Part shown: piece by piece, positions 1 to 15,325 of the stretch
Layout of the letters: every line of letters starts with the position of its first letter
Position numbering within the stretch: the first letter of the stretch is position 1
DNA from: Escherichia coli
Lineage (GTDB): Bacteria; Pseudomonadota; Gammaproteobacteria; Enterobacterales; Enterobacteriaceae
Assembly: GCF_030384885.1 (NCBI RefSeq)
Contig: NZ_CP128613.1
Strand: one strand, 5' to 3'
Length of the DNA: 64,000 nt
The notes under the pieces: generated by a model
What the model was told of the DNA's origin: nothing
Seen by the model: only the letters and a program-made list of their open reading frames with translations
Database searches by the model: none
Position numbers and translations under genes: made by a program

Positions 1-1082
1 TTAACCATAAATCGAAGCCCGGAGGCGTCCGGGTTAGCCAGTGTGGTCAGAATAATCCCTTTGACACCACCATCAGGATTGGCTTTCGCAAGAATATACA
101 TAGCGGCTAATCGCATTGGGAATACATCCTGTGATAATCCCCATTCTGCCAGTTTTAAAATATTGGCATCATGAATGGAGTCCAGCCCGTATAAAGCTGC
201 CCGGCGCTGTGAGGGAGTATATTCAGTCGAGGTGACAACATGACGCCAGAATTGCACAACATCCATGACGTCATTAAGCATGTTTTTAGCGCGTAGACGG
301 ATCAACATATTGTTATCCAGCAGTAATGCGCTGTACAACGCCGGAGGAATTTCTATAGCTCGGTCAGTAAGGCTAAACAACGTTGCTTGTCGAATACGCG
401 GCCAGCGGTCTTTTAACAGACGAGTTAATACCGCTTCGCTTAACGGTAATTGTTGACGCAGCCAGTGGGTGACCGCCAGCATTCGTAAACCTTCGTCGGG
501 CTGCTTGAGTATTAAAAGCAGCGAAGATTCATCATTAAAGTAGCCATATTCAATCAGCGTTTGTAATACTGCGCGGGAGAGTTTTTTATCAGGGCAAGTA
601 AGCCAACACGTTAATTGTGGACGGCTATTTTCTGTCAATAAAAATCTAAGTATCTCGTCTACAAATGCACGGTGATCGTAACGCTGGCATTGGAGAAGGT
701 TACGTATCAAGGGAAGATTAACGGCAAATGCCGCTGCATTCTTATCCTTCTTTAAATGACGTAACGCTATGGTTGCAGCAAGGCGAACCTCTTTTACCCA
801 GTCATTAGCTGCAAGTAATAATTCTTCTATAGCTGCAACATCCTCTTTTTGTCCCAGACATTGCACGGCCTTTTCTCGTATATATCCATTGTGGTGATGG
901 GTAAGCTGGCAAAGAACCAGAGTATCGTTGAGATCACAATCATGCGCTATATAATTGCCTGGATCGGCTATCATCGACTGGAGTTGTTGCTGGATAAGAA
1001 ATAATTCACAGTCAACAGAATTATTCATTTCGACGTTAAACAAAACCCTGCGTGTAAATAATGTACGCAATCCTTTGAGCAT
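1..1082 (-). CDS. Hypothetical HEAT/ARM-like repeat protein, N-terminal ~360 aa; gene runs off the left edge of the window
   Basis: Manual reverse-complement translation from ATG at 1082 (RBS-like AAGGA about 5 nt upstream) gives a stop-free frame to position 1, beginning MLKGLRTLFTRRVLFNVEMNNSVDCELF. Repeated helical motifs such as AAIEELLLAANDWVKEVRLAATIALRHL look HEAT-like. Absent from the ORF track, presumably because no stop lies in the window. Sequence appears more AT-rich than the neighbouring core genes. Confidence 0.5.
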   Translation of the reverse strand, partial: MLKGLRTLFTRRVLFNVEMNNSVDCELFLIQQQLQSMIADPGNYIAHDCDLNDTLVLCQLTHHHNGYIREKAVQCLGQKEDVAAIEELLLAANDWVKEVRLAATIALRHLKKDKNAAAFAVNLPLIRNLLQCQRYDHRAFVDEILRFLLTENSRPQLTCWLTCPDKKLSRAVLQTLIEYGYFNDESSLLLILKQPDEGLRMLAVTHWLRQQLPLSEAVLTRLLKDRWPRIRQATLFSLTDRAIEIPPALYSALLLDNNMLIRLRAKNMLNDVMDVVQFWRHVVTSTEYTPSQRRAALYGLDSIHDANILKLAEWGLSQDVFPMRLAAMYILAKANPDGGVKGIILTTLANPDASGLRFMV

Positions 1083-5251: not shown

Positions 5252-8200
5252 TTACTCAGTTACCGTTTGTTTAGGTTTACGCGAAAAACGCAGCCGCAGA
5301 CGGTCAAAAAAGAGATACACCACCGGCGTGGTATACAGCGTCAGGAGCTGGCTCATTACCAGACCGCCGACAATGGTGATCCCCAGGGGTTGGCGCAGCT
5401 CCGAGCCGTCACCGCCCGACAATACCAGCGGCAGCGCACCAAACAGCGCCGCCAGGGTAGTCATCATAATCGGGCGAAAACGCAGCAGACAGGCCTGGAA
5501 AATAGCTTCCTGCGGCGTCAGGTTACCGTGCCGTTGGGCTTCGAGCGCAAAATCGACCATCATAATGGCGTTTTTCTTCACGATGCCGATTAATAGCATG
5601 ATCCCTATCAGGGCGATTAGGCTGAACGGGGCATTGAACAGCTCCAGCGCCAACAGCGCTCCAACGCCCGCCGAGGGCAGGGTGGAGAGAATCGTCAGTG
5701 GATGCACGTAACTCTCGTAAAGGATACCCAGCACGATATACACCGTGGCGATGGCTGCGATAATCAGGATCACCTGCGAGTTCATCGTCTCCTGGAATAC
5801 CTGCGCTGTTCCGGCAAAACTGCCGCGCACCGTCGAAGGCACACCTAGCTGGGTCATTGCGCGGTCAATCGCCGCACTGGCGTCCGAGAGCGATTTTCCG
5901 GTCGGCAAGTTGAACGAGATGGTCGAGGCCGCCGATAATCCCTGATGATTCACCGACAGCGGGGCATTCGCCGGTTGCCATTTAGCGAAATATGACAGAG
6001 GGATCGCTTTTCCTTCGTTATTAATGACAAACATTTTTTCCAGTGCACTGATGTCCTGGGTATAGCGCGGATCCACTTCCATCACCACTTTATACTGGTT
6101 CATGGGCTGGTAAATGGTCGAGATTTGCCGCTGACCGAAGGCGTTATTCAACAGGCTGTTGGCGGCCTGCACGTCGATTCCCAGCCGTGCCATGGTATCG
6201 CGGTCGTAAACCAGATTCATCTCCGCGCCGTTATCCTGCTGGTCGGAATTCACGTCCGCCAGTTCCGGCAATGTCGCCAGTTTTTTGCGGATTTTCGGCT
6301 CCCATTCGCGCAGCGCCGCCAGGTCGTCGGAGAGCAACGTATACTGGTAACTGGCGTTCGACTGACGTCCGCCAACGCGAATATCCTGTACCGCCATCAG
6401 GAACAGATTCGCCCCCGGTTCTTTCGCCAGCTTCACCCGCAGACGGTCGATAATTTGCTGCGCCGTTTCGCTGCGCTCGTCGCGCGGTTTGAGAGTGATA
6501 AACATCATCCCACTGTTCACCCGCGAGCCACCGGTAAAGCCGGTGACATTATCCACTGCCGGATCGTCACGGATAATTTTCATAAAATCCTGCAACTTAC
6601 CACGCATCGCCTGAAACGAAATACTCTGATCCGCCTGTATCCCGCCCATCAACACGCCGGTGTCCTGCTCCGGGAAGAAGGTTTTCGGGATCGAGATATA
6701 CAGCCAGATATTCAAAGCAATGGTGCCAAGCAGCACCACGCCCACCAGACGGGTATGATTAAGCACCCATTTCAGTGACTTGCCGTAGCTTTGTTGCAGG
6801 GCTACCAACATGCGACCAAAACCACGCAGACGCTTTTGCTCGCGCGGCTTGCTGGCTTTTAGCATCCAGCCGCACATCATCGGCGTTAACGTCAGGGAAA
6901 CCAGCAACGAAATACCAATGGCGACAGAAAGCGTCACGGCAAATTCGCGTAACAGTCGGCCCGGCAATCCGCCCATCAACAGCAGCGGCAGGAACACCGC
7001 CACCAGTGACAGACTCATCGACAGTACCGTAAAGCCGACTTCGCGAGTACCTTGCAGCGCGGCCTGTAGCGGTTTCATCCCCGCTTCCAGATGACGGGCA
7101 ATGTTTTCCAGCACTACGATGGCGTCATCCACCACGAAACCAGTAGCGATGGTGAGCGCCATTAACGAAAGATTATTGAGACTGAAACCGCACAGGTACA
7201 TCGCCGCAAACGTACCAATCAGCGAAACCGGCACCGCAACGGCGGGAATAATTGTGGCGCGACCCGAGCGCAGGAATAAAAAGACCACCAGAATCACCAG
7301 TGCCACCGAGATAATCAGCGTTTGCTCGACTTCTTCCAGCGAGGCGCAAATGGTGGGGGAGCGATCCTGGGCAATTTGCAGATCAATCGCCGCCGGAATG
7401 GTCTCCTGCAACTCCGGTAATTTTGCCCGGATGCTGTCAACCGTCTGGATAATATTGGCTTCCGGCAGCTTGCGGATCATCAGCAAAATAGCCGGTTTGG
7501 CGTTGGTCATCCCGGCGTTGCGCACATCCTGCACTGAGTCGGTCACCGTCGCTACATCGCCCAGACGAACCGCGCCGCCGTTGTTGTAATGAATAATCAG
7601 CGGCTGATATTCAGCGGCGGTTTTCAGTTCATCGTTAGTCTGGATCTGCCAGCGGTGAGTGCCATCTTCCAGCGCCCCCTGCGGTTTACGCACGTTGGCA
7701 TTGCTGATGGCAGTGCGTACGTCGTCCAGCGACACGCCCTGATTAAATAGCGCCTGCGGGTTCAGCCCAACGCGCACAGCGGGCAACGAGCTGCCGCCGA
7801 CATCGACATCACCGACACCGTCGATTTGCGAAATTGTCGGAGCCAGTTGCGTCGAGGCGAAATCGTACAGTTCACCCTGCGAATAAGTATCGGATGTCAG
7901 CGTCAGGATCATAATTGGCGCATCCGAAGGATTCGCTTTGCGATAGGTCGGACGGCTTGGCATTCCGCTGGGCAGCAAACTTTGCGCGGCGTTGATCGCC
8001 GCCTGCACATCGCGCGCCGCGCCGTTGATATCCCGGTCAAAATCAAACTGCAAAATAATACGCGTGCTGCCAAGCGAACTGCTGGAGGTCATTTCACTGA
8101 CCCCGGCGATGCGCCCAAGTGAGCGCTCCAGCGGCGTGGCGACGGAAGACGCCATTGTCTCCGGCGATGCACCGGGCAGCGAGGCGCTGACCATGATCAC

Positions 8201-12929: not shown

Positions 12930-13080
12930 AACGGGAAAGCCCCTCCCGAGGAAGGGGCCTTAAATAAGGAAAGGGTCATGATGAAGATACTCATCATCGT
13001 GGTGCTCTTAGTCGTTAGCTACCCAGCTTACTAAGACTACCAGGGCGGGGAAAACCCCGCTCTACCCTCACTCCTGAAAA
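12930..13080 (-). ncRNA. sibB: Sib-family antisense sRNA (antitoxin) fully overlapping the ibs ORF
   Basis: In K-12 each ibs is covered by a ~140-nt antisense Sib RNA. On the minus strand the hairpin GCCCCTTCCTCGGGAGGGGC followed by TTTCCCGTTT sits just upstream of the ibs start, consistent with a Sib terminator. Ends are approximate. Confidence 0.5.
12978..13034 (+). CDS. ibsB: Ibs-family type I toxin, 18 aa hydrophobic peptide (MMKILIIVVLLVVSYPAY)
   Basis: ATG ATG AAG start with SD-like AAGGAAAGGG upstream; peptide matches the Ibs pattern MMK-hydrophobic run-S-F/Y-P-A-Y. Symbol assigned only by synteny (copy nearest mdtA) and is uncertain. Confidence 0.7.
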   Translation: MMKILIIVVLLVVSYPAY

Positions 13081-13257
13081 TATGCCTTCACGGTCAGAAT
13101 GTCAATCCGCAGGCTTTGCAGTCTGCGATCCTGCCAGCAAATATTCTTTGCGAGTCGTTACGCAATAATCACAGATGAAACTATTTTATCTACGCGTTAG
13201 CGATAGACTGCATTCAGGGCGAAAGGAGGTAAGCCGATGATTTCAGCGGGACGCTGA

Positions 13258-13408
13258 AACGGGAAAGCCCCTCCCGAGGAAGGGGCCTTAAATAAGGAAA
13301 GGGTCATGATGAAGTGGATCATCATCGTGGTGCTCTTAGTCATTAGCTTACCGGCTTACTAAGACTACCAGGGCGGGGGAAACCCCGCTCAACCCTCACT
13401 CCTGAAAG
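13258..13408 (-). ncRNA. Sib-family antisense sRNA, middle copy
   Basis: Same hairpin plus T-tract arrangement as copy 1 (hairpin at 13267..13286); approximate ends. Confidence 0.45.
13306..13362 (+). CDS. Ibs-family type I toxin, 18 aa (MMKWIIIVVLLVISLPAY), middle copy
   Basis: Same architecture as the first copy within the second repeat unit; the peptide differs at a few positions. Confidence 0.65.
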   Translation: MMKWIIIVVLLVISLPAY

Positions 13409-13585
13409 TATGCCTTCACAATCAGATTGTCAATCCGCAGGCTTTGTAGTCTGCGATCCTGCCAGCAAATATTCTTTGCGAGACGTTACGCAATAATCAC
13501 ATGTGAAACTATTTTATCTGCAAGTTAGCGATAGACTGCTTGCATGGCGAAAGGAGGTAGGCCGCCGATTTCAGCGGGACGCTGA

Positions 13586-13736
13586 AACGGGAAAGCCCCT
13601 TCCGAGGAAGGGGCCTTAAATAAGGAAAGGGTCATGATGAAGCTACTCATCATCGTGGTGCTCTTAGTTATTAGCTGGCCAGCTTACTAAGACTACCAGG
13701 GCGGGGGAAACCCCGCTCTACCCTCACTCCTGAAGT
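13586..13736 (-). ncRNA. sibA: Sib-family antisense sRNA, third copy
   Basis: Hairpin GCCCCTTCCGAGGAAGGGGC at 13595..13614 with T-rich tail on the minus strand; approximate ends. Confidence 0.45.
13634..13690 (+). CDS. ibsA: Ibs-family type I toxin, 18 aa (MMKLLIIVVLLVISWPAY)
   Basis: Third repeat unit, same architecture. Symbol by synteny only (copy nearest yegL), uncertain. Confidence 0.65.
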   Translation: MMKLLIIVVLLVISWPAY

Positions 13737-13907: not shown

Positions 13908-14567
13908 ATGAGCGAACAAATCACGTTTGCCACCAGCGATTTTGCCAGTAACCCGGAACCACGTTGCCCCTGCATTTTGCTGTTGGATGTTTCTGGTTCG
14001 ATGAGTGGTAGACCTATTAATGAACTTAACGCCGGATTGGTTACCTTTCGCGATGAGCTGCTTGCCGATTCGCTGGCCTTAAAAAGAGTGGAACTCGGTA
14101 TTGTGACGTTCGGCCCGGTGCATGTGGAACAACCATTTACCAGCGCCGCTAATTTTTTCCCGCCCATCCTGTTTGCCCAGGGAGATACACCAATGGGGGC
14201 CGCCATTACCAAAGCCCTGAATATGGTTGAGGAGCGCAAACGTGAGTATCGCGCCAATGGTATTTCCTATTATCGTCCGTGGATTTTCATGATCACTGAT
14301 GGTGCACCAACCGATGAGTGGCAGGCTGCTGCCAACAAGGTGTTTCAGGGGGAAGAAGATAAGAAGTTTGCCTTCTTTTCCATCGGTGTTCAGGGGGCGG
14401 ATATGAAGACGCTGGCCCAAATCAGCGTTCGTCAGCCTTTGCCTCTTCAAGGATTACAATTCCGCGAACTGTTTAGCTGGTTATCCAGTTCGCTGCGTTC
14501 GGTTTCCCGCTCCACGCCGGGAACGGAAGTTGTACTGGAAGCGCCAAAAGGCTGGACGTCAGTGTGA
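13908..14567 (+). CDS. yegL: YegL, von Willebrand factor A (vWA) domain protein, TerY-like
   Basis: 219 aa; MIDAS motif DVSGSMSG near the N-terminus and downstream TDG; 4-bp overlap with yegK. Confidence 0.9.
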
Positions 14568-15325
14568 GCTGGCGTCTGGTCTATGCATCAGCCGTTGGAA
14601 CGTCGCACATCAGCGCTGACTTGTCTTGCCAGGATGCCTGCCAGATGCAGGTTGCCTGGCTAGAAGACCAGCAGCCATTATTGTCGGTATTTGTCGCTGA
14701 TGGCGCAGGCAGCGTCTCGCAGGGAGGCGAAGGTGCGAAGCTTGCCGTCAATGAAGCGATGGCTTATATATCGCAAAAAGTGCAGGGTGGGGAATTGGAG
14801 CTTAATGATGTCCTCGCCACGGATATTGTACTGACTATTCGTCAGCGACTTTTTGCCGAGGCAGAGGCCAAAGAATTAGCGGTTCGCGATTTTGCCTGCA
14901 CATTTCTGGGACTGATTTCATCGCCTAACGGCACATTGATTATGCAGATTGGCGATGGTGGCGTGGTCGTAGATTTGGGGCACGGTTTGCAATTGCCGCT
15001 CACGCCGATGGTGGGTGAATATGCCAACATGACGCATTTCATTACCGATGAAGATGCCGTTTCCAGACTGGAAATTTTCACCAGCACTGAGCGTGCGCAT
15101 AGAGTTGCAGCATTTACGGATGGTATTCAGAGACTGGCGTTAAATATGCTGGATAATTCTCCGCATGTGCCTTTCTTTACCCCGTTTTTCAATGGACTGG
15201 CGTCAGCAACGCAGGAACAACTCGATTTATTACCTGAATTGTTAAAGCAGTTTTTGTCCAGCCCAGCGGTAAACGAGCGTACCGATGATGATAAAACGTT
15301 AGCACTGGCTATGTGGACAGAATAA
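14564..15325 (+). CDS. yegK: YegK (PphC), PP2C-like Ser/Thr protein phosphatase
   Basis: 253 aa; PP2C-type metal-binding motifs VADGAGS and FTDG; translationally coupled to yegL. Confidence 0.88.

Follow-up and report, generated by a model that had tools for sequence, protein, structure and literature searches.

What is the gene that lies beside yegP at the left edge of a 64,000-nucleotide stretch of Escherichia coli DNA (contig NZ_CP128613.1; the whole stretch is referred to below as the window), how did it come to be there and what might its product do? The original prediction, made from the letters alone, described an AT-rich, horizontally acquired gene with HEAT-like repeats in the place where yegQ would be expected. 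We found that the accessory gene is real and, in the lineage of this strain, mostly intact, that it is rare and often decaying in E. coli, that it has been exchanged horizontally into a defined hotspot, and that it encodes a PBS-type HEAT solenoid; these points are firmly established. The gene is already annotated and the fold is well known, and the protein family to which it belongs is uncharacterised. As to function, our tentative best reading is that the protein may respond to RNA damage as a binding scaffold with no enzymatic activity of its own.

The minus-strand frame at positions 1–1082 of the window contains 360 codons and no stops, and its translation begins MLKGLRTLF. Its ATG lies at 1082–1080 and an AAGGA Shine–Dalgarno sequence at 1092–1088, as expected of the open frame with a good ribosome-binding site that had been proposed, and re-translation showed the frame to be uninterrupted. 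These are the first 360 of 466 codons, the N-terminal 77% of the protein. The remainder had been placed outside the window, and this was borne out when the full gene was read from the near-identical genome of E. coli 2013C-4282 (locus L001), which is identical to the window over the first 1,200 bases and shows 3 mismatches in 21,200 bases: the missing 106 codons and the stop codon lie 1–318 bases past the left edge. In 2013C-4282 the complete gene measures 1,401 bp and encodes 466 amino acids (L001 19682–21082; RefSeq WP_000911984.1, named “HEAT repeat domain-containing protein”). Both of the repeat motifs that had been quoted are present in the translation, EVRLAATIALRHL at residues 98–110 and RIRQATLFSL at residues 229–238.

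One part of the original prediction had to be corrected, namely that the gene stands in place of yegQ. The gene order in 2013C-4282 is mdtABCD-baeSR-yegP-[HEAT]-yegQ, and yegQ (trhP) is kept, lying approximately 200 bp past the 3′ end of the HEAT gene, just outside the window. It is the gap between yegP and yegQ that is filled, by a single-gene cassette of 1,601 bp (L001 19570–21170, corresponding to window −430 to 1170) where K-12 has approximately 21 bp. The slot boundaries were taken from an alignment of K-12-type (L004), ParDE-type (E. coli W, L005) and HEAT-type sites and are identical in all three, with ParDE filling the same slot. The yegP/baeR–yegQ junction is a precise cargo hotspot. 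Its contents vary: 21 bp in K-12, ParDE in many strains and HEAT or HEAT plus ParD in others, while outside E. coli it holds HEAT plus TacA-TacT in another genus and a secreted 230-amino-acid gene plus HEAT in a further species.

We surveyed 5,426 complete E. coli genomes for the cassette, counting a copy as near-full if at least 80% of it was held. Any part of the cassette was present in 96 genomes, 39 of which had a near-full copy and 57 of which had remnants only; the gene is thus no conserved core gene at this position, and the horizontal acquisition that had been suggested is supported, alleles having been swapped between species through conserved flanks. Three distinct intact allele groups remain in E. 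coli; in approximately 21 genomes the allele is 92.5% identical and has a ParD gene after it. One record containing part of the cassette is a 43-kb “plasmid” of E. coli NDM2 (NZ_CP083887.1, L035) made up of chromosomal genes, in the order yegD, IS1, a 3′ HEAT fragment, ParD and prophage genes of P2-like type; either a misassembly or the excision of a circle may account for it. Plasmid carriage was considered and rejected, as copies were found only on megaplasmids or chromids of other genera and on this one E. coli “plasmid” of chromosomal DNA.

Homologues 36–94% identical to the query sit directly after baeR in several other lineages. In an Escherichia sp. (L016) the identity is 94% and the HEAT gene and its neighbour are both split; in two isolates of one non-E. 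coli species the proteins are 60% (L002) and 84–85% (L003) identical to that of E. coli; and in a further genus (L017, L030 and L039–L041) the identity is 36–41% and a TacA-TacT pair follows the HEAT gene. Four of the loci (L002, L003, L016 and L037) have a secreted protein of 230 amino acids in place of the upstream yegP. This periplasmic gene is absent from the locus studied here, and no conserved partner gene was found in E. coli. The two isolates of the non-E. coli species are 97–99% identical in the DNA of their flanks, with synonymous divergence (dS) of 0.03–0.18 and identical BaeR, MdtD and YegQ proteins, whereas their HEAT alleles differ by a dS of approximately 2.4. Their two-gene cassettes of periplasmic protein and HEAT gene (L002 9310–11407 and L003 9271–11398) are only about 68% identical; they represent alleles of great age that a single locus has either retained or exchanged. 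Between E. coli and L003 the relation is the opposite, the HEAT dS of 0.29 being lower than the flank dS of 0.6–1.5. Since the divergence of the HEAT alleles is at odds with that of their flanks, we conclude that old alleles have been swapped across species through the conserved flanking sequence. The ratio of non-synonymous to synonymous divergence (dN/dS) between lineages is 0.12–0.33 for the HEAT gene and 0.03–0.12 for flanking genes, and the HEAT gene has therefore been under purifying selection while evolving faster than its flanks.

The protein was predicted by AlphaFold2 (AF2; predicted local distance difference test, pLDDT, 93.8) to be all-helical, with approximately 11 PBS-type HEAT repeats and a conserved C-terminal cap, the repeats forming tandem antiparallel helix pairs stacked as an alpha-solenoid. 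The repeat period is 31 residues, with the best autocorrelation at lags 31 and 62 (−0.48 versus a shuffled mean of −0.65, standard deviation 0.05), and the signature D..(V/I)R..A..AL can be read in 9 of the 11 repeats. Pfam recognised HEAT_2 as the sole domain (independent E-value 8e−5, residues 57–108), and the family profile matched alphaRep (1.6e−47), CpcE (6e−11) and YibA (5e−7); searches of the protein against NCBIfam and PHROGs gave nothing informative. The HEAT-like nature of the product, first suspected from its repetitive helical motifs, is thus confirmed by domain match, repeat period and predicted fold. No signal peptide or membrane segment was found in the sequence.

A word-indexed search recovered close relatives alone, and a HMMER search of 1.84 billion representatives returned 1,714 proteins at E ≤ 1e−3 and 572 at E ≤ 1e−10, belonging to many phyla. 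Most of these matches span residues ~57–450, in proteins of 430–560 amino acids. Among 119 diverse members the conserved positions are mostly the canonical structural Asp, Arg and Ala of HEAT repeats; the family-specific conserved residues are W95, R134, H137, W401 (in NKW), W426 and Q441, and the cap carries the motif NKW...W...FN.SG.QP..Q. The family is uniformly basic, with a median isoelectric point (pI) of 9.21 and 96% of members above pI 7.5 (8.71 for the query), which is what would be expected of a nucleic-acid binder. As the invariant Asp and Arg residues are mostly structural HEAT positions and no catalytic domain was matched, an enzyme was rejected and a scaffold is therefore favoured.

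Three further candidates for the biochemical nature of the protein were tried and set aside. A zinc-binding C-terminus was dismissed on the grounds that the CxxC pairs C363/C366 and C389/C392 are not conserved in a 60%-identical relative; an AlkD-like DNA glycosylase (AlkC/AlkD, PF08713 DNA_alkylation) reached a Pfam E-value of only 0.11 and had no structural match; and homology to Ro/TROVE proteins gave no match in Pfam, structure or profile comparison.

No gene accompanies the family universally. The recurring pattern is rather that the HEAT gene comes immediately after co-oriented RNA-repair genes, although it should be noted that the genome and metagenome scans, which had a single usable peptide pattern, gave only 14 and 12 loci, so that the rtc/rlaP association comes from a small sample. 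The order is rtcR / rtcB-rlaP-HEAT in Buttiauxella (L009) and Pectobacterium polonicum (L020), rtcR / rtcB-HEAT in P. zantedeschiae (L023) and HTH-rlaP-HEAT in a metagenomic lineage (L013–15). In all of these the HEAT gene is co-oriented with its neighbour and lies 11–38 bp from it. The island of the metagenomic lineage also contains RtcB, an RF-1/PrfH-like gene, an RNA ligase, an HD+AAA_33 kinase and Tpt1, together with ADP-ribosylglycohydrolase, NADAR, NUDIX and Band_7 genes. The rlaP-linked HEAT proteins are only ~26% identical to one another and belong to different branches of the family tree, and the linkage is therefore either ancient or has arisen more than once. Within these operons the HEAT gene stands at the 3′ end, where the rtcB-rlaP-rtcA operons of Pseudomonas have rtcA (PMC12776372). 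RlaP extends the 3′ ends of damaged RNA by 1–2 nucleotides and is required to restore the function of heavily damaged tRNA (PMC12776372), and the commonest extra gene in rtc operons encodes Ro, a HEAT-repeat RNA binder (PMC3854526). We found no description of the rtcB/rlaP linkage of this family in the literature consulted, which did not include the RNA-repair survey of Burroughs and Aravind (2016).

Other relatives have neighbours related to ADP-ribose, namely Macro plus PARG, and ARPP-2. In Pleionea (L027 2936–5531) and in one metagenome (L046 2749–5350) the HEAT gene is preceded by two conserved genes, encoding a 480-amino-acid protein with a vWA-like metal ion-dependent adhesion site (MIDAS) motif (DRSxSMWGS) and no Pfam match, and ARPP-2 (PF22549); the members of the pair are 62% and 57% identical between the two loci. 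ARPP has been described in predicted ADP-ribose conflict systems (PMC9503650). When P. betavasculorum (L022 2018–5663) is compared with the two other Pectobacterium loci, the HEAT gene and its downstream neighbours are constant and the upstream rtcR/rtcB(-rlaP) genes are replaced by a MoeB-like gene, a family 2A encapsulin and a cysteine desulfurase cargo gene.

Taken with the fold and the charge, this placement is what leads us to favour a scaffold in the RNA-damage response. The cytoplasmic, basic solenoid would bind damaged tRNA or rRNA, or the repair enzymes RtcB and RlaP, and would help in the recognition or repair of RNA cut by ribotoxins; it might present damaged tRNA or rRNA to RlaP and RtcB, in a role analogous to that of the HEAT-ring Ro/Rsr proteins in rtc operons. 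In E. coli it is a solo copy, exchanged through conserved flanks by recombination, retained by less than 1% of strains and frequently decaying. We infer both the binding to RNA or repair enzymes and any role in E. coli. A bolder proposal, that the family as a whole is an unrecognised RNA-repair accessory, both a Ro-like RNA- or enzyme-binding solenoid that closes rtcB-rlaP operons at their 3′ end in the place of RtcA and a solo gene held as a balanced polymorphism that protects against ribotoxins, is one that we regard as possible but rather doubtful.

Several observations weigh against a scaffold in RNA repair. There is no RNA-repair neighbour at the 2013C-4282 locus, and the same-strand adjacency to rtcB or rlaP that we saw in Buttiauxella, the two Pectobacterium species and the metagenomic lineage is not a property of the E. 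coli gene, whose protein is 22–33% identical to these linked relatives. RtcB or RlaP occurs in only ~3–4 of ~20 independent contexts, many family members stand solo among unrelated or housekeeping genes, and P. betavasculorum has kept the HEAT gene where the rtc operon upstream has been replaced. No RNA-binding domain was recognised in Pfam, structure or profile comparisons, and the basic charge of the family is partly due to structural HEAT arginines. Within E. coli, the HEAT gene is split into two coding sequences in at least 8 of the 39 near-full copies, the cassette is truncated or interrupted by IS1 in the 57 remnant-only genomes, and a scan of L001 19400–21700 found no consensus sigma-70 promoter in the 88 bp that separate the HEAT ATG from the yegP terminator. 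Given the lack of such a promoter, the split copies and the remnants, expression of the gene in E. coli may be poor, or the gene may not be needed there.

These last observations are also the ground for reading the gene as a functionless passenger in E. coli, one that would have recombined in from a related Escherichia or other enterobacterial lineage, be poorly expressed because it lies behind the yegP terminator and be in the course of loss. The scarcity of near-full copies fits such a fate, as does AT-rich composition, which is typical of foreign DNA. With respect to the latter, the AT-richness that had been claimed relative to the neighbouring genes holds. The HEAT gene has a GC content of 0.440 and a third-position GC content (GC3) of 0.407, lower than the GC3 of 0.53–0.68 in the adjoining genes yegP, baeR, baeS, mdtD, mdtC and yegQ; across the whole window, however, the region does not stand out: when the window is cut into 630 segments of 1,082 bp, it is the 117th lowest. 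The passenger explanation is at variance with the purifying selection between lineages, the persistence of three intact allele groups in E. coli and the good ribosome-binding site and conserved N-terminus, and we consider it unlikely. It also concerns only the present status of the gene and is compatible with a biochemical function.

In the main rival to the scaffold, the gene would encode an orphan Imm-HEAT immunity protein, the solenoid of which would bind and neutralise a polymorphic toxin, possibly an RNase, delivered by contact-dependent growth inhibition (CDI), by Rhs or the type VI secretion system (T6SS) or as a colicin, and the gene would be kept or lost according to the competitors met. 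Its antiquity of alleles and its residence in a hotspot shared with toxin–antitoxin modules would suit such a protein, and the HEAT relative in Serratia adjoins a CdiA toxin locus. That toxin, however, is already paired with its own immunity gene (DUF6911), and neither the E. coli gene nor most of its relatives have a toxin gene next to them. Inhibitors of nucleases are usually acidic, whereas this family is basic throughout. The full-length architecture and the invariant residues are kept across phyla, unlike in fast-diverging toxin-specific families, and the matches to YibA and CdiI are at the level of generic repeats. On balance we think immunity improbable, if somewhat less so than the other alternatives.

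The position of the gene raises the further idea that it is an accessory of BaeSR envelope stress and efflux, co-expressed with mdtABCD-baeSR. The clade nearest to the E. coli protein is always found just after baeR, in at least five lineages (36–94% identity), and in some of these the secreted 230-amino-acid protein is a partner. In L030 only a GC-rich hairpin without a T-run lies between baeR and the likely start of the HEAT gene. The public gene call at this locus (7001–7090) overlaps the HEAT start with the baeR stop, and is probably over-extended, because the conserved N-terminus (MDIK...) starts 85 bp downstream. In E. coli, by contrast, yegP and an intrinsic terminator intervene. The core gene yegP (minus strand, 1205–1537, from the annotation of the near-identical genome and the open reading frame list) lies upstream of the cassette and is not part of it, and its terminator hairpin (gccgggcgtagg-ttgt-tggcgtccggc; minus strand, 1171–1197, found by terminator scan) is core sequence at which the variable slot ends on its right side: from the hairpin onward, the alignment of K-12 and ParDE-type genomes with the HEAT-type genome resumes. 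The cassette begins with an AT-rich 5′ region of 88 bp (minus strand, 1083–1170, its boundary at L001 21170 corresponding to window 1170), which carries the ribosome-binding site and supplies a T-run at 1170–1161 that completes the yegP terminator; the GC content of 1083–1204 is 0.39. Elsewhere in the family no association with bae or mdt genes is seen, and the lack of a signal peptide or membrane segment does not suit an envelope function. As the slot also collects ParDE and TacAT, the position beside baeR is more simply explained by a cargo hotspot, and a BaeSR accessory seems very unlikely to us.

We also considered a component of anti-phage defence, such as a protein related to the HEAT/ARM accessory of type XIII retrons. 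PADLOC gave a weak match to HEAT-ARM_XIII (1.2e−7, 27.5 bits), the gene occupies a variable hotspot, and some relatives adjoin ARPP-2 or, in Affinibrenneria, a Schlafen-like helicase. The match covers only 188 of the 1,972 profile positions (582–769), however, with no reverse transcriptase or SWIM-domain gene nearby, and PADLOC gave nothing else at E ≤ 0.01 (BrxF reached only E = 0.034), nor did PHROGs yield a match. Searches of 50,697 phage records and of viral contigs found no relatives, and on this result a phage origin of the gene was rejected as well. Of all the functions weighed here, defence is the one to which we give the least credence.

Three other features of the window were recorded. 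Upstream of mdtA, at ~12978–13690, there are three type I toxin genes of the Ibs family in tandem, and pphC (a PP2C phosphatase gene, 14564–15325) is an annotated pseudogene with an internal stop, both according to the annotation of the near-identical genome; from ~53200 to beyond 55200 the GC content is 32–34%, far more AT-rich than the HEAT gene.

Taken by itself, the locus is ordinary accessory DNA of E. coli. It nevertheless illustrates a slot which is alternately empty or occupied by ParDE, TacAT or a HEAT gene, and through which very old alleles pass between species. The activity of RlaP on damaged tRNA was described only recently and few partners are known that steer bacterial RNA repair to its substrates, and a large uncharacterised family which recurs behind rtcB and rlaP is a concrete, testable candidate for an RNA-repair scaffold.

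Compared with known systems, the likeness to the type XIII retron HEAT/ARM protein is a weak one at the level of repeat profiles and does not extend to a full-length match. The HEAT-ARM_XIII model represents an accessory protein that occurs with a reverse transcriptase (RT) and a SWIM-domain protein (PMC7736814); membership of this retron type was rejected, as only a partial repeat match was obtained and no RT, non-coding RNA or SWIM-domain gene is annotated within 20 kb on either side. Imm-HEAT proteins resemble the family in their HEAT solenoid, patchy distribution, diverged alleles and, in one lineage, location beside a CDI toxin locus (PMC3482391), but lie directly downstream of a cognate toxin, whereas the neighbours in E. 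coli are yegP and yegQ. The family resembles Ro60/Rsr in being a HEAT-repeat protein encoded as an extra co-oriented gene in RNA-repair operons controlled by sigma-54 and RtcR (PMC3854526); the E. coli protein differs in having neither a TROVE domain nor a C-terminal vWA/MIDAS, all 466 amino acids being helical repeat and cap. The best matches of the family in both sequence and structure are the PBS-type HEAT proteins, including alphaRep, the CpcE/F bilin lyases, deoxyhypusine hydroxylase and E. coli YibA, with which it has in common 31-residue helix-turn-helix repeats of the form D....(V/I)R..A..AL. It has neither a lyase partner nor the His-Glu metal sites found in deoxyhypusine hydroxylase, and is set apart from the other PBS-type proteins by an architecture of its own, consisting of approximately 11 repeats, an atypical third repeat (R134-x-D-H137) and the C-terminal cap with NKW, W426 and Q441.
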